Translations under genes and position numbers: made by a program
Notes under the pieces: model-generated
Databases searched by the model: none
What the model was told of the DNA's origin: nothing
What the model saw: the letters and a program-made list of their open reading frames with translations, nothing else
IMG/VR virus record: IMGVR_UViG_3300018481_000019
Location: 29,818-93,817 of that record
Length of the DNA: 64,000 nt
Source: a virus
Strand: one strand, 5' to 3'
Shown here: piece after piece, positions 1,875 to 60,397 of the stretch
Numbering within the stretch: the first letter of the stretch is position 1
Layout of the letters: every line of letters starts with the position of its first letter

Positions 1875-2311
1875 GCTATTGGCTGCGTTTTGAAAACCAC
1901 CGTGAGCCGGTCGAAGTTGCCAGTGGATACGGTTTCAAGGCACCGAAATCGTGGGGCCGGATGCTCCGAATGGAGGAAGCAGATGATGTATCTGGTGGCG
2001 ATTGCTGCCCCGATTTGGAAAACGATCCCCTGGCGGACCTAGAGCGCCAGCTTCAGGATGAAGAATCCAAGCTCTCGGAGTTGATTGGCTCTACCGCCGA
2101 GATTCAAAAGGAAATCGGGAGGTACGACATCAGGATTCTCACTGCCAGTGGGAAGGACCGGCGGGCCATGCTCGCCAGCGCACGGTTTTTGAAAGTCCAA
2201 CAATTGCACGACATGGAAGCCCGGAACCAGACAGAGATAGACCGTCAGCGAGCAAGGGTCGCCAGTTTGCGAAGGCTACGATCCGAGAAGAGAAAGGACT
2301 TGTCGAAATGA
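1871..2311 (+). CDS. Hypothetical coiled-coil protein
   Basis: ATGA-coupled to genes on both sides; heptad-like charged sequence. Confidence 0.55.
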   Translation: MSYWLRFENHREPVEVASGYGFKAPKSWGRMLRMEEADDVSGGDCCPDLENDPLADLERQLQDEESKLSELIGSTAEIQKEIGRYDIRILTASGKDRRAMLASARFLKVQQLHDMEARNQTEIDRQRARVASLRRLRSEKRKDLSK

Positions 2312-3225
2312 CCGATCTAGCTGGCGAACTTCTGCCAGACGGTGTGTATGAGGGCTATGCCGAATGGGGCATGGTGCGGGAGGACATCGGCGCGATTCTG
2401 GCGGCGGGGTTCCCGGTCAAGCCACCGAAGCAGTGGTTTGAGAATCCCAATTTCATGCGTCTCTCGCCATTGACCGTGGAAGGCTCGGGACAAGTGATGG
2501 GCCACGTCGCATCGTGGAAGCAGTCGCACATCGGCATGAGTGGATCGGTGCGCGCCCCCAAGTCGAAGTCGAAGTACGCCTTTTTTAAGACCGGCGTGGT
2601 GGAGACGGACGATGGTTCGTTCCAAGACGTAGGGCAGATCACTCTCACCGGGGGTCACGCCCCATTGGACGCGACCACCGCCGATGCCGTAGCCCACTAC
2701 GACAACACCGACTCCGCCGTGATGGACGTGAATGTCGGTGAGGATCGGTTCGGAATCTGGGTTGCCGGAGCGCTCCGTCCCAACGTTGACGAGACGAAGC
2801 TGCGAACGATTCGGGCTTCCTCCGTCTCCGGCGACTGGCGACCGATCAACGGTGGCTTGGAACTAGTCGCGGTGTGCGCGGTCAACGTTCCCGGCATTCC
2901 GATCCCCCGAGCCAAGATCGCATCGGGTGTCCCGATTGCCCTGGTTGCCGCCGGAGTGGAGCCGTTGGTCGATCTGGCTCTGGAAGAGAATCTCGGCCTC
3001 AGCATTGATGAAGAGATTCGGGCGGGGCTGAATGAGGTCTACGACCGTCTGGAAGCCATTGAGTCCAGGCCGGACATCACCATGACCGCCGCAGAGCGAC
3101 GTGACGCTATCTCTCAGGCGATCAATGACACCGCCACGGACAGAGAGGCTCGGGCCGAGTCACTCCGTAGGAACGTCCACAGGGACGCTTACGCCGCTTC
3201 TCTGCGGAGCCGAGTCCATTCGTGA
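2308..3225 (+). CDS. Capsid maturation (prohead) protease, actinophage type
   Basis: Motifs PP..WF..P, GHVA.W..HIG, AHYDNT...V.DV.VGED.FGIWVAG, SGDWR...G.LELVAV.AVNVPG.P typical of mycobacteriophage cluster-B-like proteases. Confidence 0.75.
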   Translation: MTDLAGELLPDGVYEGYAEWGMVREDIGAILAAGFPVKPPKQWFENPNFMRLSPLTVEGSGQVMGHVASWKQSHIGMSGSVRAPKSKSKYAFFKTGVVETDDGSFQDVGQITLTGGHAPLDATTADAVAHYDNTDSAVMDVNVGEDRFGIWVAGALRPNVDETKLRTIRASSVSGDWRPINGGLELVAVCAVNVPGIPIPRAKIASGVPIALVAAGVEPLVDLALEENLGLSIDEEIRAGLNEVYDRLEAIESRPDITMTAAERRDAISQAINDTATDREARAESLRRNVHRDAYAASLRSRVHS

Positions 3226-6179
3226 CCCAGAATCGGGCCAGGGCGGTGCCAAGCACCGCTCTGGTCGCTGCTCGCTCATGGGAAGCCGAGCTTCACCCGC
3301 GGGGCCGGGATGGGAAGTTCATCGAAAAGCTCGGCATGGTCAAGCTCTTCGACTTCGTCCATCCCCGCTCTAAGGAACAGATTTCAGAATCGACCGGCGT
3401 AGTCAAGAACATCTTTGGCGGCGACCGCATCATGGTGGAACTACCCGATGGGGTGACGGTCCCGGTCAAGTCCAACCAGATCGAATCGCTTGGCGAGAAG
3501 GCACGACTCACCCTGTATCGGGGTGAAGGCGATCTGGACAATCCGTCGTACTACACGCCGGAGTCAGGGGAAGCAGGGGGATGGTGGACGAGCGACCGTG
3601 ATGCGGCAGACCGATACGCCAAGGGTGTTCCTGGGGGGAAGGTCTACGAAATCGAAGTCGAAGGGTCAGAGGTAGAGCCAAGGGGTGCTCATTACTTCAT
3701 CTCTGACCCGACGGTTCGATCAAGGCGACGATTGACCGACTCCGGCGCTCTTTACCAAAACGAGAATTTCCTAGACACCGTCAAGCAAGTCGATGCCGCC
3801 GAATTCCACAAGGGATTCGCTGAAGCTCGCCAGGGTCGGTACGGAGCCTTCCTTAGTGATTTCGATGAAAGCCACTTCGCTCAGGAAAATGTCGATGTCT
3901 ACTCGGCGTTCGACGGGAAGGTGGGTGCGGCTCTCACTCGCCATGAGGACGGTCGAGTTGAAATCGGTTCCCTCTATGCCTTGGAGGGAGCGCCACCTAA
4001 AGCCGGGATCGACCTACTCCGATATTTACTGGACGAAAAAGGGGTCAATTGGCTCAACAACTTCGATGGGCCACTGACCGATATGTACGAAGCGAACGGG
4101 TTCAAGGTCGATACCTCTGATCCCTGGAACGAAGAGTATGCGCCGGATGGATGGGACTATGAGCGGTTTGACAATCCCGCATACATTACAATGTCCCGTA
4201 AAATGGAAAGACCTGTAAGGGGAGCAGCAAGTGGTAGAAGCATTGACACCGGAACAACTGGAACAGATTCGGACGAGTCTCTACGCCAAGACCGAAGCAC
4301 GGCTCGGCAAGGAATGGGTCGCGTCCCACCAAGAGTTGATGGACGAGCAGTTTCAGATGATGCAGGACTACGGGCTTCTGGACGAAGTCCTCTTGGAGCC
4401 GACGCTCTAACAGCATCGGTCAGAGTGGAGGCGATGCGCGCCTTCGTTCACAATCCGCACACGGTCTTGGTGTCTTTCACCGCCGCTGACTGGAACCCCG
4501 ACCTTCACCCGAGAGGTCACGACGGCAAGTTCATTGAGACGCTTGGCCTGATTCATCTCATTGATATGGCGGGCTTTCGCCACGGTCAGAGGGGCGACAA
4601 GCGGGTCCAGGGTCAAGTCCAAGAAATCATCCCCGACCCTGACGACCCCGGCAACCCGATCATTCGGGTGAAAATGACCGATCCCCGATGGGACGCTTCT
4701 GCATTCGGGGAGACATTCGATGCTCGGAGCTACCAAGTCTCGGCTCGGGAACCGGGCAAAGCGACGATTCCAAAAGAGCCAGTTGTCGATCTAGCGGGCG
4801 AACTGTTGCCTGACGAGCCTCCGTCAGTTACCCCCATAGCGACCGACCTTGTCCCGTCGATCACCGAATCCGACATCGGGGTTGGAATGGCTCTGGCTCC
4901 AATGGCGAAGCCTGGTGGGTGGGACGGGTTGTCGCCAGCGGCAAAGCAATCGTGGATCACGGATCAGATGCAGGCGGACCTCAGTGCGTTTCGGGGAGCG
5001 CCCACAGTTTTCAATTTGGAAAGCACTGATCCTGAAGTCGCATTCAATCTCGCCAACCGATACCGGGAGCTAACCGGCATCGACACGCCGACCGCGCTGT
5101 GGGTCGATGGGGTTGTCACCAACGCATCGGCTCATTTGATGAACGACGAATTGGTCAAGCCGACTTCAGCGATTGCCGTGGCCCATCCCGGCACCAAGCA
5201 CCCTGGCGGCATTGGCCCGATCACGAACCGCAAGGCCATAGTTTTGAATCAAGTTCACTTCCAAGACGACAAGACGTGGGCCAAAGAGAAGGCCATGAGT
5301 TCTGGCGGGTCGTTTCCCTGGTCGGTCGGCTCTACCCAAGGCGATTACACGGCGACGATGGTGCATGAGTTCGGACACCACCGGCAGTTCCGGTATCTGG
5401 CGGAGACGATGCTGGAAGCTGGTCAGCCGTTTTCAAAAGTGAGACATGCCGACGGTTTCGGCCTCATGCCGGATTCTTCTAATTGGCCCGAAGTCCAGGC
5501 GGCCCGGTATGAGATTCAAAAACTGGCTCCCTCTCAGTACGGGTTGAGCAAGTCTTCAGAGGCATTCGCTGAAGTGTGGGCCGGAGTTGTTACCGGCTAC
5601 GTCCCGATTTCACCTGAATTGCAATCTGCGTGGGACTCATGGCATCTCGGAATGGACATTCCCGGTCAGATGCCGCCGACTCGGTACACCCCCGACGAGC
5701 TTGTCGATTATGGATCACTCGCTCCCGAAGAGCTAGATGCGTATTGGGCTGAGGCTTCTGCCCTTTTGGAATTGCCGGGAATGCGTGAGCACTACCCCCA
5801 AACCGCTGCGCTCTACGACTCATGGGCCGCTGGAACGGTCTACGCCGAGTCCGACTTCGGGGAGCCGATTGAGTTCCCGAGCGAGAGCTTGGAACTTGAA
5901 CCAGCGTTGATGCAGGCTCGGTCGGTTCAGGAAATCAAGGCCACCAATTTTTCGGAAGTCGAATCCTTCATACGAGAAGCAGAGAAGACACAGGGCGGCG
6001 CGTGGTCGTTCTTCCCGACATTCGGCTCGGTAGACATAGTGCGAGCAGCAACACCGTCTCAAATTCCTGATGATTATTACAGCCCATCAAGTAACCGAAT
6101 TTTCTACAAGGGCAAGTGGCAGACTTTCACCCCGGCAGCAATTATCCGAGAGCAGAACAGAGGGATGGGGTCCGATTGA
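3222..6179 (+). CDS. Polyvalent virion effector protein: HPR module + ART-like domain + GNAT-like domain + second HPR module + zincin metallopeptidase
   Basis: Two LHPRG.DGKFIE motifs; LYRGE...GWWTSD...A..YA...VYE (ADP-ribosyltransferase-like, ~3510-3720); IGSLY...WLNNFD..LTDMYEANGF...WNEEYAPDGWDY (GNAT-like, ~3790-4195); VHEFGH (5364-5378) followed by SQYG...SEAFAE (zincin). Confidence 0.7.
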   Translation: MTQNRARAVPSTALVAARSWEAELHPRGRDGKFIEKLGMVKLFDFVHPRSKEQISESTGVVKNIFGGDRIMVELPDGVTVPVKSNQIESLGEKARLTLYRGEGDLDNPSYYTPESGEAGGWWTSDRDAADRYAKGVPGGKVYEIEVEGSEVEPRGAHYFISDPTVRSRRRLTDSGALYQNENFLDTVKQVDAAEFHKGFAEARQGRYGAFLSDFDESHFAQENVDVYSAFDGKVGAALTRHEDGRVEIGSLYALEGAPPKAGIDLLRYLLDEKGVNWLNNFDGPLTDMYEANGFKVDTSDPWNEEYAPDGWDYERFDNPAYITMSRKMERPVRGAASGRSIDTGTTGTDSDESLRQDRSTARQGMGRVPPRVDGRAVSDDAGLRASGRSPLGADALTASVRVEAMRAFVHNPHTVLVSFTAADWNPDLHPRGHDGKFIETLGLIHLIDMAGFRHGQRGDKRVQGQVQEIIPDPDDPGNPIIRVKMTDPRWDASAFGETFDARSYQVSAREPGKATIPKEPVVDLAGELLPDEPPSVTPIATDLVPSITESDIGVGMALAPMAKPGGWDGLSPAAKQSWITDQMQADLSAFRGAPTVFNLESTDPEVAFNLANRYRELTGIDTPTALWVDGVVTNASAHLMNDELVKPTSAIAVAHPGTKHPGGIGPITNRKAIVLNQVHFQDDKTWAKEKAMSSGGSFPWSVGSTQGDYTATMVHEFGHHRQFRYLAETMLEAGQPFSKVRHADGFGLMPDSSNWPEVQAARYEIQKLAPSQYGLSKSSEAFAEVWAGVVTGYVPISPELQSAWDSWHLGMDIPGQMPPTRYTPDELVDYGSLAPEELDAYWAEASALLELPGMREHYPQTAALYDSWAAGTVYAESDFGEPIEFPSESLELEPALMQARSVQEIKATNFSEVESFIREAEKTQGGAWSFFPTFGSVDIVRAATPSQIPDDYYSPSSNRIFYKGKWQTFTPAAIIREQNRGMGSD
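4231..4410 (+). CDS. Nested +1-frame 59-aa helical acidic protein, candidate immunity protein
   Basis: AAGGGGAG SD at 4217-4224, GTG 4231, TAA 4408-4410; MVEALTPEQLEQIRTSLYAKTEARLGKEWVASHQELMDEQFQMMQDYGLLDEVLLEPTL; the host frame here is low-complexity linker. Confidence 0.6.
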   Translation: MVEALTPEQLEQIRTSLYAKTEARLGKEWVASHQELMDEQFQMMQDYGLLDEVLLEPTL

Positions 6180-11143: not shown

Positions 11144-12070
11144 TCATATGTCCTCCGGTAGTAGTTGGTCCGCCAGTGACGGCGGTTCGGACGTGTCGAT
11201 TGTGATTGGGAGAATCGCGTGCTCTTTCAAAACGGCAGCGAAGCTCTCTAGGGCTTCCGCCGCCTTTTCCATTCCCTCAGTCGCCTCTTTCAATCCGATG
11301 GATTCCTCCACCACTTCATCGAAGTCGTCGGGCTGCTCGGGAATGTCTTTCACCGCTGCTTCCATCGCAGCCAAGTCAGCCAGTTCACTCACCAAGAATT
11401 CAATCTTGGGAGATGGAGTTGAATCCAGATTCGCTATCGCCTCTTCGACGGTGGCAGCGTCGTACCAAAAGGAAGATGCGCCCTCCGGTGTTGAAATGGG
11501 GGCGGAGTCGGCGTAGATGCCGACTCCCAAGCCCTTCATCGCTTCGTCTTTGGTCGGGTAGGCCCACCCGTTGTTCTTGGCGCAAACCGGCCCGTACCCG
11601 GCGAAGATGCTCCGCTCGTCGGTCAGATGGGCGGCACAATTGATGCAGATGCCGTAGGTCTTGCCGAACTTGGCGGCTTCCTCAGCGGGCATCCGAGTGG
11701 CCTCACTCAGACCTTTCAGCCCCCGCTTGCCCTGGTACTCAAAGCCCCAGGCTCCGTCAATCTCTTTCAGGAAGGAAGCGACGACATGCCCGTTCCGAGT
11801 CCGGTAGACCTTGACCGCCACTCCCGTCTCGGGGGAGATGTGCATTCCCTCCGGCACGTCGGCGTAGACCGGCTTGGGCTTCTCGACCTTGGGCTGCGCC
11901 AGAAGCCATTCGATGCGCTTGCTGGCTTCCTGCTTGGTCATGGTGTCGGAAGCGACTTGGGCCTCAACGTGGGCCTTGACCTCCGGGGTGAGTGACCGCT
12001 GCTCTATGAGCGAGACGATGAAGGCGATCTGCTTCTCGGTTGCGTAGCTTTCGGGCGGGGAGTATGTCAT
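11144..12070 (-). CDS. DUF6011-domain protein
   Basis: CINCAAHLTDERSIFAGYGPVCA motif; N-terminal ATEKQIAFI; own promoter and SD; ends SLADQLLPEDI. Confidence 0.75.
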   Translation of the reverse strand: MTYSPPESYATEKQIAFIVSLIEQRSLTPEVKAHVEAQVASDTMTKQEASKRIEWLLAQPKVEKPKPVYADVPEGMHISPETGVAVKVYRTRNGHVVASFLKEIDGAWGFEYQGKRGLKGLSEATRMPAEEAAKFGKTYGICINCAAHLTDERSIFAGYGPVCAKNNGWAYPTKDEAMKGLGVGIYADSAPISTPEGASSFWYDAATVEEAIANLDSTPSPKIEFLVSELADLAAMEAAVKDIPEQPDDFDEVVEESIGLKEATEGMEKAAEALESFAAVLKEHAILPITIDTSEPPSLADQLLPEDI

Positions 12071-12845: not shown

Positions 12846-13478
12846 TCAAAACGGAGGTTTGTCGTCTCCGTCAGGGTCTTGGTCTTCGTCTAGCTTCGGG
12901 ATGGGCGGCGGTGCTTCCTCTTCCGCTGGTGGTTCCGCTGGCACCGGCAGAGGAACATCTGCACTTGCATCGTCGGTGTGCAGAGGTATCGGCGGTGGCG
13001 GAGGAACGTCGGCGGCAGTAGCGGCTCCGGCGAAATCGGGAGCGGGCGGAAGTTCGTCTTCACCCCCTGGTGGGTGCAAGCTCTTGACCTCAGTGCGAGT
13101 GTCACCTTCCCAATCGCGGTGTGACACATTGGCTACCACGGAACGGCCCACCATCAAACGAGCAAGGTCTTCCGGCGATGGGTTGTTGTCTCTGAGAAAT
13201 GCTTCTGTGAATCCGAGCGAGCGAAGCGCCCGGAGGAACATGCGGCGATGTCCCGGCTTGGATTCGTGATTTGGAAAAACGAGATTGTTCCAGAGGTACT
13301 CGTCGTCATACGGCCCACCGTCCACGACCAGCACCATTTCGATCATGGTCTTGCCGGTAGCGGCGGGCGATACCGTGGCTTCCTTCACCCGAGTCAGAAT
13401 CTTTCCAATGGGAATCAGATCAGCCGGTGCTCCGGTGGGGCTTGCCTCCCCCAAAATGTCGGACCAATTGAACGTCAT
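12846..13478 (-). CDS. Single-stranded DNA-binding protein (DUF669-like)
   Basis: OB-fold-like core, acidic/Pro tail ending DDKPPF; downstream of Sak4. Confidence 0.7.
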   Translation of the reverse strand: MTFNWSDILGEASPTGAPADLIPIGKILTRVKEATVSPAATGKTMIEMVLVVDGGPYDDEYLWNNLVFPNHESKPGHRRMFLRALRSLGFTEAFLRDNNPSPEDLARLMVGRSVVANVSHRDWEGDTRTEVKSLHPPGGEDELPPAPDFAGAATAADVPPPPPIPLHTDDASADVPLPVPAEPPAEEEAPPPIPKLDEDQDPDGDDKPPF

Positions 13479-15758: not shown

Positions 15759-16850
15759 TCACGCTTCATCAGGCAACCTCACCGGCATCATTATGAATCG
15801 AACGCTCGGGTCTTTAGGACCGCTGATTCGGAACATGGTTTTCGGCTCGGAGAATCGAAGCTCAACTTCATCGCCGGTCAGCGATTGAATAACGGGGCGG
15901 AACAGATCGACATTCAGACCGATGGTGAGAGGGAGTCCGGGCCACTTGCCACTGATATGTTCCGAGCTATCGCCAAGCTCGGTGCGAGTGGCGAGTACGT
16001 CCGCCCCTGGTGCTTCCGCTTCCAATTTCAACCTCATGGGAAGGTGAAGCCCGGTGAGGACTTGCGCTCGGTCACAGGCGGCGAGCAGTTCTGACTTGTT
16101 GGTGGCGAAGACCCATCCGTCAACCTTGTCGTCGGTTTCCAAAATGGTTTTGTAGCTCGGGAATTTCTTGGAGCTACGAAGCGTGCTGATCGCATTTCGC
16201 CCCTGGCGAAAGGTGACTCGGTTCCGTTCCACCACCACTTCGACATCGCCACTTCCGGTCAGCACTTTTTCGGCATGGCGGAAGATGGTTGCGGGTATGA
16301 CTGCCGACTCGTCAAATTCAAAAACCACTCCGCTGTCGATCACTCCGATGCGGAATCCATCGGTGGTCACTATCTGCCCGTTCTCGGTTCCGTTTTCAAA
16401 AAGCACCAACTCGGCTTTGGGAACCGCCCCGAGATACCCGATGATCTGCGAGAGCCAATTGAGCGGGAGCTTGAAATCAGCCCGCTTCCTAATAGAGATT
16501 TCGGGAAAGGCGGTGGCATCGCCATACCGCAATTTGAATTTGGGTCCGTGCTCGCTCTTCAGTTCCACGGTCCCGTCACTGGCGGTCAAGGTGACTGCCC
16601 CGTCGGGCAAGGTGCGGACGGCCCGAGCAGTCTCCGGTGGAAGCAGGCTTTTGAAACCGGCTCCGGCTCCGACTTCAGCGCCGAACGCCGTCTTGATGGT
16701 GAGTGTTGAGTTGGTGCCAGTGAGAACTACCCATCCGTCAGTAAACATTTCCAAGTGAATCTGACGATAGGTGTCGATCTTGGAAGACAGGGCCAACTCG
16801 ACCTTGTCCAAAGCAGCGCTGAGTTCTTCCTGAGTAGTGACGAGTTTCAC
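15759..16850 (-). CDS. dnaN: DNA polymerase III beta sliding clamp homologue (start approximate)
   Basis: TDGFRI, KFPSYKTIL, ELLAACDRA, IGLNVDL, C-terminal FIMMPVRL; about 360 aa. Confidence 0.85.
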   Translation of the reverse strand: MKLVTTQEELSAALDKVELALSSKIDTYRQIHLEMFTDGWVVLTGTNSTLTIKTAFGAEVGAGAGFKSLLPPETARAVRTLPDGAVTLTASDGTVELKSEHGPKFKLRYGDATAFPEISIRKRADFKLPLNWLSQIIGYLGAVPKAELVLFENGTENGQIVTTDGFRIGVIDSGVVFEFDESAVIPATIFRHAEKVLTGSGDVEVVVERNRVTFRQGRNAISTLRSSKKFPSYKTILETDDKVDGWVFATNKSELLAACDRAQVLTGLHLPMRLKLEAEAPGADVLATRTELGDSSEHISGKWPGLPLTIGLNVDLFRPVIQSLTGDEVELRFSEPKTMFRISGPKDPSVRFIMMPVRLPDEA

Positions 16851-17627
16851 AGTCTGAGTCCTGTCCGATTCAAGACGACTGACTATACCGTCCGTAGAGA
16901 GCCGGGGTGCTGCCAGCGAAGCCATTCATCGGGGGTCATTCGGACCAGGGCGGAGCAAGCGCAATCGGGTTGGTGACACGCTCCCCGAGACTCAGAACTG
17001 ATCTTGATTCCGGCATGGGACAAATCGGGGTGGTAGCAGTTTCGACACCAAGCATGGCCGCCCATCGAAGAGCGGGCGATCACGAATTCAAGCGGCTCTT
17101 CCATCCGATAGCTCCAACTGGATTTTCTCAATCAATCGTTTCTCAGACACCGCTTCGTTCTTGTGCTCACGGTCGAGATGGGAGAAGGTGAGCACGCCCT
17201 CCAAGACCAGATATCGCTCATTGAGAAGACGACTCAGATAAGCACGATGGTTGCTTGGTAAGTTCATTCCCCGACCAACTCCCAATCTCGGTGTTCGATT
17301 GGTTCCAAGGTCACGTCCACTGGCGGACCTTTGACGATGTGGTCTTCATCGACTTTCAAAAGTGCGTCCGCCAGTGTGGGCCGGAAGGCTCCGCTCGGAA
17401 TCTCGACGGTGAGTTTGATCGCCACTTCTCCGCCGTGCAGGACCGGCACTCGCTTTTTCACCAGGCGAGAGACACCCCGCTCGTCGCATACCAAGTAGAC
17501 CGTTGACTTCACTGTTCCTCCCGTCTGCGCTTCTCGTTCATCTGTCTTACGGCGAGCACGATCATAAGCACAACCAATGTCCCGAGCGTGATTGCGATGC
17601 CGACAAGCATCCCCTGTGTGAATTCAC

Positions 17628-18541: not shown

Positions 18542-18757
18542 TCACTTGCTCAGATCATCGGGAAGCAAGGCGCGGACAAGGACGTTTTCCATGCGGGTCA
18601 CTTCCTCACTGAATCGCAAGAGGAAATTGAAAAGCGTTTCGTTCATCTCCGTGGAAGCTCGCAGCATCTTTTCAGCCGCTTCCGCCATTTGACTCGCGGC
18701 TCGCCGGATTCCTTCATCATCGACGTGAATCATTTTTCCATATTCACCAAACGTCAC
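18542..18757 (-). CDS. Small helical hypothetical protein, near-terminal LVRALLP
   Basis: Coupled ORF. Confidence 0.5.
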   Translation of the reverse strand: MTFGEYGKMIHVDDEGIRRAASQMAEAAEKMLRASTEMNETLFNFLLRFSEEVTRMENVLVRALLPDDLSK

Positions 18758-41770: not shown

Positions 41771-43792
41771 TCATGCGATGGTGACTGCGCCGCCAACGCC
41801 GCCCTTGGTCTTCACGGCCAGTGTGCCGGTGTAGCTCCACAGTCCGTCCGCCACGCCAGTCCCAGGACCGATGTAGGCCAAAGCCTCAAACGTCTCAGTG
41901 AAGGTGCAGTAGCGGTTGGTCTGAATGTCTTCCTTCGTCCGAACCACGCCAAGGTCGAGCGACCCACCGTCGAGACGGAGGAAAGCGCCAGTGGCATAGA
42001 GGATGAAGTCGAACGTGACGGGGTACGCATTCTTCGCTGCGAACCCGCCGCCGGGAGTCAGACCGTCGAGTGACCAAACGGCATCGACGTTGAAGTCGCT
42101 GAACCATCCATCGACTTCTGATGCACTGGTGTTGAGCGCATCGTCGCCGGGAGCCTGGAACGTGAGGTCCGCTGCCATTGCATCCCGAACCCAATTCGGA
42201 GCGATGAAGGTCAGTGGGGTCGTCTGCGAGAGACGGTTGTTCCAACGGAACTCCTGAGCGGCAATCCGAATCGCCTTCAGTGTGTCCCGCGACGTGCCAA
42301 GCACAGTGGTTCCGGCGGCACCGACACTGGTGGAAGCACCCTTCATTATGCCGAGAATCCATTCCTCAGCCATGCGTGCTTGCTGCACCAGGGCGAAATC
42401 CGTGTTGGCTCTGATCCACTCGGGGTATGCCCGCTGGTGGAGGTTGGAGAAACACAGACCCATTGTCAGTGCGACCAACTCGGCCTCACCGTTCACGCCA
42501 CACTCCACATCGAAGAATGGCTTCAGAGCGGGGTCCAGATCATCGGGTGCCACGCCGCCTGTCACCGCGGCCAGTGCCATATCGGTTCCAGTCACGGCGG
42601 CTTCGTCGGGATCGCCTGGGGTCCACACGCTCACACCGCGGGGATTCACTGCGGTAGGCCGCATGATCGACGGTGGGCGGGTGAAGATGATCCCTCCCCG
42701 ATCCGCATTGAACGTCGGGATCGAACTAGCGACGGGCCGGTCGGTTGTCCCGATGGTCGGCACGTCATAGATCGGCACCTTGGGCGCGCACCATCCGGCG
42801 GCGACCAGGGCTTCCCGAGTCAAGTTGGCGGGATCGGAAATCAACTGGCGCACCTTGCGCGCATTCCCGATGGTGTCTGAGGATGAAAGCGTCTGATCCT
42901 CTGTCGGCTCGTTCCGGTTGCGAATCGACGCGACGAGAATGTGCTCCCCGTCTCCGGCGATGCCGCGAATCGAATTGACCTTGGCGGCAAAGGCTTCCGC
43001 CACTCCATCCAAATCGGTCAACTCTGACCCTGCGGTGTAGCCGGGGATATCGCCGCCAGCGAGAATGACATTGGGACGCTCGGCAGGTGCGGCGCTCGGA
43101 GCGTTCTCTGCCGGAACGTCCGATGCCGTGACTTCGATGTCCACGGAATTGTTCTCCTGTTCGGTTGTGGCGGAAGCAGTCTCGGGAGCAGGCTCGCCTT
43201 CGGCGGGCGGTTGCTCTTCCTCCGGTGCTGGCTCCCCTTCGGGTGCTGGCTCTGCGGGCTGCTCTTCCGGTGCTGGCTCGGACGCGGGTTCCGCTGGTGC
43301 GGGTTCCGGTTCCGGCGCTGGCTCGGCAGGCGGCTCTTCGGGAGCGGGTGCGGGAGCAGGCTCGGCGGGCGGCTCGGGCTGAGGCTCGGGCTGTGGCTCG
43401 GCGGGCGGCTCGGGTGCTGGCTGTTGCTCTGCTTGCGGAGCGGGAGCGGCTTCGCCTGGTGGCGTACCGATCTGTGATTCCGGCGATTCGGCACCTAGTC
43501 CTGTGGCGGCGACGGGGGTAACCGTCGCGTCCGTGGCTCCACTTGTCGTGGTGGTCGCACTGGCGGCTGCCGGTACTTCCTCTGCGGGTGCTTCCGCTGG
43601 TGCGCCAGTCTCGGAGCGGCGGGTCTTCTCGGCGCGGACTTCATCAAGTCCGTCAGCGAGATTTTGCATTGCGTCAACGTCACCGGCTTCGTCGGCGGCA
43701 TCGAACGCTGCGACCATCTCCTGCTCTAGCGCGTCCAACTCTTCGTCGGAAAGATCAGGCAACGTCGAAAGACGCTCTGTGAAATCCTCCAT
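41771..43792 (-). CDS. Major capsid protein with fused acidic Pro/Ala/Glu-rich N-terminal scaffold-like region
   Basis: ALVAAGWCAP, RGGI, RAYPE, G.LDLGVVR.....TN.Y..F.ETFE motifs of actinophage MCPs. Confidence 0.8.
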   Translation of the reverse strand: MEDFTERLSTLPDLSDEELDALEQEMVAAFDAADEAGDVDAMQNLADGLDEVRAEKTRRSETGAPAEAPAEEVPAAASATTTTSGATDATVTPVAATGLGAESPESQIGTPPGEAAPAPQAEQQPAPEPPAEPQPEPQPEPPAEPAPAPAPEEPPAEPAPEPEPAPAEPASEPAPEEQPAEPAPEGEPAPEEEQPPAEGEPAPETASATTEQENNSVDIEVTASDVPAENAPSAAPAERPNVILAGGDIPGYTAGSELTDLDGVAEAFAAKVNSIRGIAGDGEHILVASIRNRNEPTEDQTLSSSDTIGNARKVRQLISDPANLTREALVAAGWCAPKVPIYDVPTIGTTDRPVASSIPTFNADRGGIIFTRPPSIMRPTAVNPRGVSVWTPGDPDEAAVTGTDMALAAVTGGVAPDDLDPALKPFFDVECGVNGEAELVALTMGLCFSNLHQRAYPEWIRANTDFALVQQARMAEEWILGIMKGASTSVGAAGTTVLGTSRDTLKAIRIAAQEFRWNNRLSQTTPLTFIAPNWVRDAMAADLTFQAPGDDALNTSASEVDGWFSDFNVDAVWSLDGLTPGGGFAAKNAYPVTFDFILYATGAFLRLDGGSLDLGVVRTKEDIQTNRYCTFTETFEALAYIGPGTGVADGLWSYTGTLAVKTKGGVGGAVTIA
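43170..43450 (-). repeat. Coding PAEP/PAPE tandem repeats
   Basis: Imperfect GGCTCGG repeats encoding a Pro/Ala/Glu linker. Confidence 0.7.
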
Positions 43793-57338: not shown

Positions 57339-57915
57339 AATGGAACCAGGCCACAGACCATGCCTGGACCGAGAGAAGCAATATGAAGGCTTCCCTCTCG
57401 GTAGCTAGCTCGGGCGCAAGGTGTGGCCTGGTTCCGAAAAGGCCGGTGGGGAATCCGCCGGTCTTTTCTTATGGACTACGGTGGGTGGTGATTCCGGGTT
57501 GGTGACCCCCCCATCCAACGCTCGGAACCACAGGGAGTAGGCGACCGGCACTGCCCCTCTTCCCCTGAGAGACGGGCCACAGGGCCGGTCGTCTGCTTTG
57601 GCCCATGAAAGAACCGGAGTCTTGCGGCTCCGGTTCTTTGTCCCATTCCCCCACGGCACCCGTCTCGGACTACTTCCAACGTCTGAGTCGAATACCCCTC
57701 TTTCCCGATTCGACCGCAGCCGAATCAGAACCAAGCGAACGCCGTTGACTCCCCTACCAACGGCGTTCGACTCGTCCGAAGCTGGAACTAGGAGGGACCA
57801 GCTTCGATGCCCACCCCCACGGCACTTGACCGCAGTGGCTTGTAAAGCCTAATCGCTGTAAAATTGGCGGTGGGGTTTAATCGTCTGAAAATATGTAGCG
57901 ACAATTTTCCCACTC

Positions 57916-58311
57916 TCACTCGGGGAGCAAGTCTGAGAGCATGGCATAGCCCCGGTTCATTTTCTCCAACTTGACCGCCCCGAGCAACAAGCGGATTCGG
58001 ATTAGCAATCGTCTCCGGCAGTGGCCGGGGCTAATGCAGTGAACGGAATCGTCGTAGGGGAAGTAGGCGACACCGAATGCCGGGTGCTCTGCCACGACCT
58101 TGTCAGAGGGTACGAAACCGCACCAATCGCATTTCTTGTAAGGGAGTTCGTAAGTCCAGTACGGCTCCGGGTGGAGGAACTCGCTCTTGACGATGCCTGC
58201 TCCGTCTGTGACAACGATGTGGGCGTGGTCGCCGTGAGCGTCGGCGGTTTCGCTCTCTCGGGTCCAACGCTCCATGAATCGCTTTCGGTATTCGCCGTGT
58301 ATGTCGCTCAT
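57916..58311 (-). CDS. LLP-tag array gene 8 (Cys-containing), ends LSDLLPE
   Basis: ATG overlaps the upstream TGA. Confidence 0.6.
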   Translation of the reverse strand: MSDIHGEYRKRFMERWTRESETADAHGDHAHIVVTDGAGIVKSEFLHPEPYWTYELPYKKCDWCGFVPSDKVVAEHPAFGVAYFPYDDSVHCISPGHCRRRLLIRIRLLLGAVKLEKMNRGYAMLSDLLPE

Positions 58312-58574
58312 GGCAGGAGATAGGTGTCCAGATCGCGGGGAACGGTCTTGGGAACGCAGCCACCGTTTCTTCGGATGGAGTCCCACAGTTTCTTGTAGCG
58401 CTGATAGGCGCTTTCAAAATCAGTGTGAGCACTGAGGCGATAATTCCTCCCGGTGTATTGCCAGCCGCCGTCCTTGGTTTTCATCCCGGCCTTTCCGACC
58501 ACGATGAAGAAATCATCTTCGGCTTGCACTTCGGCTTCGATGATTACGGCGGTTTGGAAACGCTGAACGCTCAC
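58308..58574 (-). CDS. LLP-tag array gene 7 (paralog family A), ends DLDTYLLP
   Basis: GTGA coupling; family A pattern. Confidence 0.6.
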   Translation of the reverse strand: MSVQRFQTAVIIEAEVQAEDDFFIVVGKAGMKTKDGGWQYTGRNYRLSAHTDFESAYQRYKKLWDSIRRNGGCVPKTVPRDLDTYLLP

Positions 58575-58813
58575 GACAGCAAGTCCTTCCACGGTTCACG
58601 TTCTCCGAAGAGCGCCAGCGGGACCACCTTCATTGGATTGAGGATGCTCAGTGTTTCTTGATAAGCGGTTATGGCTTTCCTGGCATCTGTCCGGGTCGGA
58701 TACCGATTGAGAATGTAACGCTCGCCGTCGGCGGCTTCCCCGATGATTGCATAGGGCTGAAAGAGATAGCCTTCTAGGAAGAGACGCACCATGATGATTT
58801 CAACCGTCGTCAC
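58571..58813 (-). CDS. LLP-tag array gene 6 (family A), ends PWKDLLS
   Basis: GTGA coupling; family A pattern. Confidence 0.6.
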   Translation of the reverse strand: MTTVEIIMVRLFLEGYLFQPYAIIGEAADGERYILNRYPTRTDARKAITAYQETLSILNPMKVVPLALFGEREPWKDLLS

Positions 58814-59094
58814 GGCAGGAGGTAGTCCGGTAGATCGTAGGGAACGGTACGAATGAAAGGTCGGAGCTTCCCGGTGTCGTGAAGCCGGTCGTGGTAGCGC
58901 ATTCTCCGCTTGGCTGCATCGTCGTGGTGGGAATGGACGCTGAGAAGATATTCGTTCTCTGTTGCCCACCAACCCATCTCGGAACCTTCCGGCGCTTTAT
59001 ATCCTGAGTTGCCGAACACCGCCCAACTGCCGCCGGGGAGCACCTTGATGAAGACTCGGACGATGTAAACCTGTTTTGAAAGTGTGTCGCTCAT
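58810..59094 (-). CDS. LLP-tag array gene 5 (family A), ends DLPDYLLP
   Basis: ATGA coupling. Confidence 0.65.
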   Translation of the reverse strand: MSDTLSKQVYIVRVFIKVLPGGSWAVFGNSGYKAPEGSEMGWWATENEYLLSVHSHHDDAAKRRMRYHDRLHDTGKLRPFIRTVPYDLPDYLLP

Positions 59095-59339
59095 GGCAGG
59101 AGATACTCAAAGAGATGCCGACGGACTCCGCGGGGGAAAGTTTTGTGAGAGTGAATTCGTTCTTGGTAGTGGTTCAGTGATTCCACGGCCTCTTCGTGCG
59201 TGTTCTTGATTGCGATGATGTAGCGGTAGTCATTGAGAACGGTCCAATCATCGGCATAGCCGAGTATCCACCACTCGCCGTCATGCTCGACCAGTGCGAC
59301 GGCAACGATTCTCACTGTTTTGTAAAGATGGTCGCTCAT
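59091..59339 (-). CDS. LLP-tag array gene 4 (family A), ends HLFEYLLP
   Basis: ATGA coupling; KTVRI...THEEAV. Confidence 0.65.
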   Translation of the reverse strand: MSDHLYKTVRIVAVALVEHDGEWWILGYADDWTVLNDYRYIIAIKNTHEEAVESLNHYQERIHSHKTFPRGVRRHLFEYLLP

Positions 59340-59539
59340 GGCAATAGCTCGTCGGCTAGGGACGGCGCACACAAAACCATTGGTGGGTCGGTCTTGTGCA
59401 TCCAAACTGACTTGTGACCGCCCCGATGGTCGGGGGTGGAAAGAACGTGGAGCTTGATGTCCTCACCACAGAAGTTGCAGACCGGGGGCCATTTCACCAT
59501 GTCAACATCGGACCCTTTGCGGGGAGTGGCTTGTTTCAT
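59336..59539 (-). CDS. LLP-tag array gene 3 (Zn-finger family B), ends SLADELLP
   Basis: CNFCGEDI...WMH...C. Confidence 0.65.
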   Translation of the reverse strand: MKQATPRKGSDVDMVKWPPVCNFCGEDIKLHVLSTPDHRGGHKSVWMHKTDPPMVLCAPSLADELLP

Positions 59540-59802
59540 TTCAAAAGCTCGCTGCTCAAATCCCAAACATGGACCCACCGGGGAAAGGACGGTTCGTCGG
59601 AACCGATGCCGTGGAAGTAGTAGCGGTAGCTGGCTACGGCCTCTTCGTGGGTGTCGTGTTGGGTGAGAACGTGTCGTGTTGCGCCGGAGTCCATGCTCGA
59701 CTTGCCGTTGTACCCGACGACGACGTATCTCTTCGCAGCCGTGACATCGACTTCGATCTGCGCCCATTCGATACGGACGGTTTTCATTCCGTTGACCCTC
59801 AC
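59536..59802 (-). CDS. LLP-tag array gene 2 (family A), ends DLSSELLK
   Basis: KTVRI...THEEAV. Confidence 0.65.
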   Translation of the reverse strand: MRVNGMKTVRIEWAQIEVDVTAAKRYVVVGYNGKSSMDSGATRHVLTQHDTHEEAVASYRYYFHGIGSDEPSFPRWVHVWDLSSELLK

Positions 59803-60005
59803 GGCAATAGCTCTGCGCTCAGATCACGGACGATGCAGTCTTGGGTGCGAAAGATGGTGCGTCGGTCAGAGTGGACCCAGGCGTATTCCTCCACTCCACC
59901 TGAAATGCTGGTTATCACTCCATGAATGCGTTGCCCACAGTTGACGCAAATGTCGTGATACGGGACGAACGGAGGCGCACCGATAGTGGTTTCGGCTTTG
60001 GTCAC
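59799..60005 (-). CDS. LLP-tag array gene 1 (Zn-finger family B), ends DLSAELLP
   Basis: CVNCGQRI...WVH...C. Confidence 0.65.
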   Translation of the reverse strand: MTKAETTIGAPPFVPYHDICVNCGQRIHGVITSISGGVEEYAWVHSDRRTIFRTQDCIVRDLSAELLP

Positions 60006-60096
60006 GCTGGACCCGGACCCACGATCACGATGCCTTGGGTTTGGAGGATTTCAAGAACGGCATCGCAGTAGGCGACCCCGAGTACGCATTCACAAT

Positions 60097-60342
60097 TCAT
60101 GGTGTGTCCTTTCTCTCGGCGGCATCGCAAAGATCAACAAATCCGTTGAACGACCGGAGGCACTTGTCACAGGGTCGGGTGACGGCAGTGATTCTCTGAG
60201 CCTGGTCGGTGAGCTTGGGACCACAGAGGAAGTGATGCCCGTTGGCAGTGTTCGGAGTTCTTTTGATTTTGGTTCTCCGGTTGAGAACGACGTGGTCGGT
60301 CCCGTTGACCCGGAAGAGATGGGCGTTGAGGTTCATGGGCAT
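60097..60342 (-). CDS. Small His/Cys protein, first gene of the array operon
   Basis: SD CAGGAG directly after the promoter. Confidence 0.55.
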   Translation of the reverse strand: MPMNLNAHLFRVNGTDHVVLNRRTKIKRTPNTANGHHFLCGPKLTDQAQRITAVTRPCDKCLRSFNGFVDLCDAAERKDTP

Positions 60343-60357: not shown

Positions 60358-60397
60358 TGCACTAAGAATTATAGCCCATTTGAAATGGAATGCAAAT
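60358..60397 (-). promoter_or_regulatory. SigA-type promoter driving the LLP-tag array
   Basis: TTGCAT-N17-TATAAT-TCTTAGTG. Confidence 0.75.

Follow-up and report, generated by a model that had tools for sequence, protein, structure and literature searches.

A leucine-rich C-terminal peptide shared by an array of small phage proteins and by other proteins of the same genome: a candidate docking motif

In phage T4, the C-termini of gp43, gp33 and gp55 bind the sliding clamp gp45, and in phage T7 the acidic C-terminal tails of gp2.5 and gp4 bind the polymerase. Short peptides also guide proteins into protein shells: the T4 capsid targeting sequence, about 10 residues long, lies at the N-terminus of internal proteins and is removed by the prohead protease, while the cargo-loading peptides of encapsulins lie at the C-termini of unrelated cargo proteins and bind the inner face of the shell protein. 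Here we analyze a 64-kb window of viral DNA (bases 29818-93817 of the 93,817-bp IMG/VR record IMGVR_UViG_3300018481_000019), in which eight consecutive small genes, G1 to G8, end in a common peptide with the pattern [D/S]-L-x-x-x-L-L-P that recurs on other proteins of the phage. A shared docking tail is a kind of system already known; what is new here is the sequence and the unusual set of carriers.

As in T4 and T7, one short acidic-hydrophobic end is found on a number of unrelated phage proteins; in T4 and T7 such ends dock on a hub. The present case differs in having at least 13 carriers, mostly tiny proteins encoded by cassettes that shuffle within an array, plus two head proteins, and in its sequence. 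Capsid-targeting and cargo peptides likewise place one short peptide on unrelated proteins, and the known ones send their carriers into an HK97-fold shell; here the motif is found on a head protease and on a polyvalent protein of the head-packaged type. A T4-type capsid targeting sequence was considered and rejected, the peptide being C-terminal in 11 of the 13 carriers with nothing cleavable beyond it. Terminal position and unrelated carriers, both properties of encapsulin cargo peptides, are found here as far as the sequence tells; the consensus, however, is another one, and most large head proteins of this phage lack the motif.

The motif that binds the bacterial β clamp, Q-aliphatic-x-[LM]-[FL] or Q-aliphatic-x-[LM]-x-[FL], resembles the tail in being short, in lying in disordered ends or linkers at N-terminal, internal or C-terminal positions, and in having a Leu-rich core that is often followed by a carboxylate (PMC11139829). 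In contrast, the tail lacks the Gln at position 1 and, with rare exceptions, the aliphatic residue at position 2, has an L-x3-LL spacing and is capped by Pro; none of the 27 tails from this array and its two relatives fits the clamp-binding motif with LL set at the last two positions. Gln stands next to LL only in the tail of a DUF6011 protein (QLLPE) and in two QALLPE tails of the related contigs L001 and L002, which do not fit it either. Polyvalent proteins have been proposed to be packaged and injected (Iyer et al. 2017, PMC5512222). A 985-amino acid (aa) carrier of the motif, judged by motifs in its sequence, appears to resemble them in its multi-domain build with a zincin-like HExxH part, and its gene lies in the head gene block. 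A shared short tail linking polyvalent proteins to small-protein arrays was not found in the searched passages of that article.

The array and its shared tail

The tailed genes belong to a chain of ten minus-strand genes that runs from 60342 to 57916 by stop/start overlaps, each junction reading ATGA or GTGA. The chain opens with two genes whose products carry no tail, G0a and G0b, and continues with G1 to G8 (Table 1), of which G3, G4, G6, G7 and G8 likely begin at the overlap starts rather than at the starts of the longest open reading frames (ORFs). A first-pass annotation of the window had reported the overlaps, the eight tailed ORFs with their coordinates and last eight residues, and the codon strings of the tails, all of them correctly. 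It had also placed the eight genes behind one consensus promoter. A sigma-70-like site matching at 10 of 12 positions does occur, and its location is suggestive; the operon begins two genes earlier than proposed. Promoter-like sites are found once per 3.5 kb, at the same rate in shuffled sequence, so that position is the only support for the site.

To assess the abundance of the peptide, 300 residue shuffles of the proteome served as the baseline. The pattern L...LLP was observed 10 times against 1.09 in the shuffles, and C-terminal LLx or LLP[DE] 9 times against 0.86, with 0/300 shuffles reaching either count. Paralogy inflates the count within the array, whereas cross-family sharing and the count outside the array are independent of it; outside the array, L...LLP was observed 5 times against 1.08 in the shuffles, again reached in none of the 300. 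The Leu codons at positions -7, -3 and -2 are interchangeable among paralogues and orthologues alike (CTA, CTT, CTC, CTG and TTG). Between the window and L001, orthologous tails are identical at 53/64 positions (83%) and the bodies at 371/604 (61%); the tails differ by 13 synonymous and 11 non-synonymous codon changes, none of them at the LL pair. Searching 1.84 billion representative proteins with a profile yielded 10 further short members of one array family, family A, all 10 ending in [LI][LI]P or LLPE. Neither stop/start coupling nor a ribosome-binding site accounts for the peptide as a by-product: among 62 other ORF ends in ATGA or GTGA in the genome, LL at -3/-2 is found in P9 alone, a ninth tailed gene outside the chain, and the other 61 lack the peptide. 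The enrichment, the free choice of Leu codons, the stronger conservation of tails than of bodies, the family A homologues and the coupling without the peptide together indicate that selection acts on the peptide. These results bear out the conservation at the protein level and the independence from ribosome-binding sites that the first-pass annotation had held; the tag is also enriched over shuffled controls and retained in all array-gene homologues found.

The bodies of the proteins are more diverse. Sequence comparison divides the array into two clear families plus G8. Family A, assigned by BLASTP and alignments, comprises G2, G4, G5, G7 and, more weakly, G6, and consists of a β-meander plus a helix. 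Family B comprises G1 and G3, with the C-x2-C...W-x-H...C pattern of a CCHC zinc finger, to which P9 is similar. The body of G8, the best conserved array member, is separate from both and combines a CxxC...HC...HC region with a helix (RLLIRIRLLLGAVKL) that is basic-hydrophobic and invariant. When family A was aligned against family B by profile-profile comparison with hhalign, only the 9 tail columns aligned. The earlier count of at least three sequence families is revised to two plus G8. No match to any array protein was obtained in Pfam or PHROGs, and a PDB sequence search and the ESM Atlas likewise gave nothing.

An AlphaFold2 model of G5 (20 sequences, predicted local distance difference test score 86) consists of three long strands, then a helix, then a fourth strand, beyond which the tail forms a low-confidence terminal turn. 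In this confident model the tail is thus predicted to lie outside the folded domain. Foldseek and VIA-align searches with the model returned only weak PriB/SSB/PC4 or PH-like rows (E ≥0.2, Z ≤5), for which reason the fold was left without assignment.

Syntenic arrays were found on two metagenome contigs, L001 and L002, giving 27 tailed genes across three genomes including the window, and array orthologues are contained in ENA contigs of 94,157 bp and 95,574 bp. IMG/VR scans with protein P0005 and with G8 found no array, and two IMG/VR loci reached through a MuF protein end before the array position. The motif is confined to phages of one small clade, from soil and sediment. Among these relatives the cassettes vary in order and number: G5-G6-G7-G8 in the window (58308-59094) corresponds to G5'-G7'-G6'-G8' in L001 (2356-3154), and there is one extra tailed cassette in L001 and three in L002. 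Several junctions have 13-21 identical bases in common, for example TATCTCCTGCCATGAGCGACA at G4/G5 and G7/G8, and the phage encodes a Sak4-like annealing protein. The tail-coding junctions may also be sites of cassette recombination, as a side effect rather than the cause of their conservation. The array also illustrates how such a label could spread, with cassettes gained, lost and swapped between related phages at the junctions that encode it.

Carriers outside the array

Five further carriers were identified in the phage: a DUF6011 protein, a polyvalent-type protein, the head protease, P9 and a 71-aa protein, the last a weaker instance of the motif. All of these copies lie in ends or linkers, and their Pro is always followed by Asp or Glu or by the C-terminus. 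The C-terminal half of the DUF6011 protein is acidic and probably disordered; a relative with 45% identity, L024, ends in RMELLPEDLS, while the remainder of its C-terminal half differs.

The putative head maturation protease, of 305 aa, carries the motif close to its N-terminus, in a stretch of low confidence in its AlphaFold2 model. The protein has ~52% identity to the products of annotated capsid maturation protease genes of Arthrobacter, Gordonia and Microbacterium phages, its homologues show invariant His, Ser and Asp columns, and Foldseek gave weak though convergent matches to herpesvirus proteases (E 0.05-0.3); it has no match to Pfam S78. At the position of the motif the wider protease family has only an L-x-DG-x-Y consensus, and a similar stretch that precedes the homologous domain of phages Mimi, Big4 and Cece was set aside as this family feature rather than the tag. 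In several large actinophages (L007, which is Microbacterium phage Big4 gene 76, L010, L008 and L005) the homologous protease domain stands behind another, weakly S78-like domain within one long protein.

The gene directly following that of the protease encodes the 985-aa polyvalent-type protein, in whose sequence two LHPRGxDGKFIE modules, a GNAT-like stretch and an HEFGHH motif can be read. For one homologue the source annotation reads GNAT, and Pfam gave no match at E<0.01. The tag lies in a Pro-rich linker between an HPRG module and the zincin-like HEFGHH part. Its nine residues, DLAGELLPD, are the same as in the protease, with 4 synonymous and 0 non-synonymous differences between the two copies. 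In homologues of 73-78% identity it is kept as DLSKELLPE or EKELLPE inside an otherwise variable linker, and in those of ≤63% identity it is lost. In the related contig of 95,574 bp, P0142 is called as a gene that begins right after the tagged linker, and the polyvalent-type gene may accordingly be split there.

Readings of the tail

We consider that the tail would act as a short docking motif, an address label by which one common partner recognizes many phage proteins, and we give this reading about an even chance of being correct. The ten genes form one translationally coupled operon; the eight tailed products, which have two unrelated folds and in G8 a body of its own, each end in a linear motif outside the folded domain. 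This motif consists of Leu at -7, Leu-Leu at -3/-2 and usually Pro at -1 in acidic surroundings, followed by a carboxylate that is either the free C-terminus or an Asp or Glu side chain, and a single partner would read it on these diverse proteins. Selection at the protein level, sharing across families, flexible position and recurrence on other proteins are features that the data establish; that the motif binds a partner, and that all carriers have one reader, we infer.

Of all carriers, a role can be named only for the putative head maturation protease and the polyvalent-type head protein. On this ground we tentatively suggest that the reader belongs to head assembly or to the pathway of ejected proteins, a suggestion with perhaps one chance in four of holding. 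The small proteins would in that case be loaded into the head and delivered along with the DNA. On somewhat weaker ground again, the tail could be a head-loading address through which a changing set of zinc-finger and β-domain proteins, together with polyvalent effectors, would be packed and injected, with cassettes shuffling at the tail-coding junctions; such an arrangement would give a tailed phage a cargo-loading system with a C-terminal signal, a counterpart of the encapsulin cargo peptides.

Several observations weigh against docking in general and against the head pathway in particular. Since family A supplies five of the eight array genes, all paralogues, part of the tail sharing is inheritance. 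Co-folding of G5 with the HPRG module (residues 425-518 of the polyvalent protein) gave a score of 0.23, the mark being 0.32, which speaks neither for nor against binding. A general capsid-loading signal should occur on other large head proteins too, and those of 838 aa and 2136 aa and the MuF-zeta protein are without it. The copy in the protease is absent from 89%-identical relatives, which start MTTRLEDG. Five phages whose proteases are homologous, Big4 among them, lack family A, and in the Big4 proteome the tag is not enriched. Finally, with its own sigma-70-like promoter and its HNH and superinfection-exclusion-like neighbours, the array looks more like early or accessory genes than virion genes.

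The resemblance to an early or accessory operon would suit a different reader, in which the tails are recognized by a hub of replication or of the host: the phage's own DnaN-like protein, the β clamp of the host, or its Clp or proteasome machinery. In that case the small proteins might be clients of the clamp, its competitors or adaptors, or the tail might be a degron that times their removal. The phage does encode a three-domain DnaN-like protein, the DUF6011 carrier closes a block of DnaN, exonuclease, Sak4 and SSB-like genes and has the acidic disordered tail typical of clamp and SSB clients, and the published clamp motifs share with the tail their variable position and frequent following carboxylate (PMC11139829). 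We nevertheless regard such a hub as unlikely, since the published motif, including the spacing of its first hydrophobic residue, is not matched, and since a head protease and a head-packaged polyvalent protein would be odd clients of a clamp or a degradation machine. Nor does the tail resemble LAA-type or hydrophobic-Tyr-X ends. Slightly less probable still is that the tails serve the array proteins themselves in homo- or hetero-oligomerization without an outside hub, the acidic tail packing for instance against the basic, invariant G8 helix or into a groove on family A proteins. Co-translation of all members from one coupled operon suits co-assembling proteins, and the basic-hydrophobic G8 helix would complement an acidic-hydrophobic tail; the motif, however, is also present on proteins that are encoded far away and have other roles, namely the DUF6011 protein, the polyvalent protein and the protease.

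Two further explanations dispense with binding. The tail could be an inherited family end with a few copies that arose by chance or spread by recombination and have no common function. Every known member of family A, and thus five of the eight genes, is tailed, the protease copy is lineage-specific, and G3, P9 and the DUF6011 protein may share descent because they have near-identical SLAD[EQ]LLP ends and CxxC fingers. We find this improbable: tails are conserved above bodies, no loss of the LL pair occurs among the 27 genes and 10 remote homologues, families A and B are otherwise without similarity, and the five outside copies, in clear excess of expectation, all lie in disordered ends or linkers in the same acidic or C-terminal context. 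Least probable is that the conserved element is a DNA or RNA junction, either a termination-reinitiation signal or a homology for cassette recombination, of which the peptide is a mere translation. The uniform ATGA/GTGA overlaps with their shared bases, the G6/G7 swap and extra cassettes of the relatives and the Sak4-like protein would fit such a junction, and junction homology may in any case aid shuffling as a side effect. The explanation conflicts with the near-universal lack of the peptide at other coupled ends, with Leu codons that vary at their first and third positions while the residue stays constant, with conservation that extends as far as Leu -7 and Asp -8, 21-24 nt upstream, and with the presence of the motif where no gene starts (protease N-terminus, polyvalent linker and end of G8).

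The docking reading therefore keeps part of what the first-pass annotation had proposed, a tag that docks diverse small proteins onto one hub: the evidence fits a docking peptide, and none of the hubs named there gains support. For DnaN, the tail departs from the published clamp-binding motif, and in the supposed MoxR-VWA pair the protein adjoining the MoxR ATPase has no VWA match. Among the named hubs we lean weakly to the capsid, on the sole ground that two head proteins carry the motif. The accompanying statement that no phage system of such a kind had been described was too strong, since the principle is familiar from shared docking tails and from peptides that target proteins to capsids. 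If one partner does read the tail, it would be a simple portable label that brings at least 13 different proteins to one place. The identity of the reader would at once give a role to a whole block of genes without an assigned function, and might yield a short tag that directs proteins to the site of the reader, possibly into the capsid; without a reader, the tail is a well-documented motif whose function is unassigned.

Genome setting and feature coordinates

Protein matches point to Actinobacteria as the host group of the phage, those of the DUF6011 protein being to Streptomyces, Gordonia and Mycobacterium phages. Genes for the terminase, tape measure, tail fibres, portal and major head and tail proteins were identified, along with PolA, helicase, primase, the DnaN-like clamp, exonuclease, Sak4 and a MoxR-type ATPase. 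A public phage collection contained no near relative of the phage and no match for the array region or G5. The array lies in an accessory region of the genome, next to an HNH endonuclease and a superinfection-exclusion-like gene, and no tRNA or Rfam families were found near it.

Table 1. Positions of the array genes, motif copies and neighbouring features in the window
Feature	Coordinates	Strand	Remarks
Sigma-70-like promoter site	60368..60396	-	TTTGCA-17-TATAAT; 10/12 match; 26 nt upstream of G0a
G0a	60097..60342	-	81 aa; Cys/His-rich; first operon gene; no tail; end overlaps G0b by ATGA
G0b	60002..60100	-	32 aa; Cys-rich; no tail; conserved in L001
G1	59799..60005	-	68 aa; family B (CCHC zinc finger); tail DLSAELLP
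G2	59536..59802	-	88 aa (83 aa from inner ATG); family A; tail DLSSELLK
G3	59336..59539	-	67 aa; family B; tail SLADELLP
G4	59091..59339	-	82 aa; family A; tail HLFEYLLP
G5	58810..59094	-	94 aa; family A; tail DLPDYLLP
G6	58571..58813	-	80 aa; divergent family A; tail PWKDLLS
G7	58308..58574	-	88 aa from GTGA overlap start; family A; tail DLDTYLLP
G8	57916..58311	-	131 aa; last operon gene; tail LSDLLPE (last eight residues MLSDLLPE)
Terminator-like hairpin	57736..57769	-	14-bp stem; ~150 nt past G8
P9	56800..57048	+	82 aa; CxxC small protein; ninth tailed gene; tail SLADELLP; ATGA-coupled to next gene
DUF6011 protein	11144..12070	-	308 aa; ends SLADQLLPEDI; end of recombination/replication gene block
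71-aa protein	18542..18757	-	ends VRALLPDDLSK; weaker motif instance
Motif in putative head maturation protease	2314..2340 (gene 2308-3225)	+	DLAGELLPD; residues 3-11 of 305 aa
Motif in polyvalent-type head protein	4788..4814 (gene 3222-6179)	+	DLAGELLPD; residues 523-531 of 985 aa
DnaN-like protein	15759-16925	-	three-domain
210-aa protein	12846-13478	-	between Sak4 and DUF6011 genes; ends DDKPPF
Major head protein	41771-43792	-	673 aa
ORF-poor stretch	57339-57915		~580 bp between convergent plus-strand cluster and array

G0b and its counterpart in L001 (1097-1186) form a conserved Cys-rich mini-gene of 29-32 aa (MNCECVLGV...) that precedes the first tagged gene. On the other side of the array, the stretch that separates it from the convergent plus-strand cluster contains no convincing ORF, tRNA or Rfam match, and the strong hairpin sits inside it. 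The 210-aa protein encoded beside the DUF6011 gene has no SSB family match in PHROGs, and its terminal residues are of the tip type seen in actinobacterial SSB tails. The major head protein has an acidic N-terminal helical region and, ahead of its HK97-like part, ~170 residues of Pro/Ala/Glu-rich low-complexity sequence.

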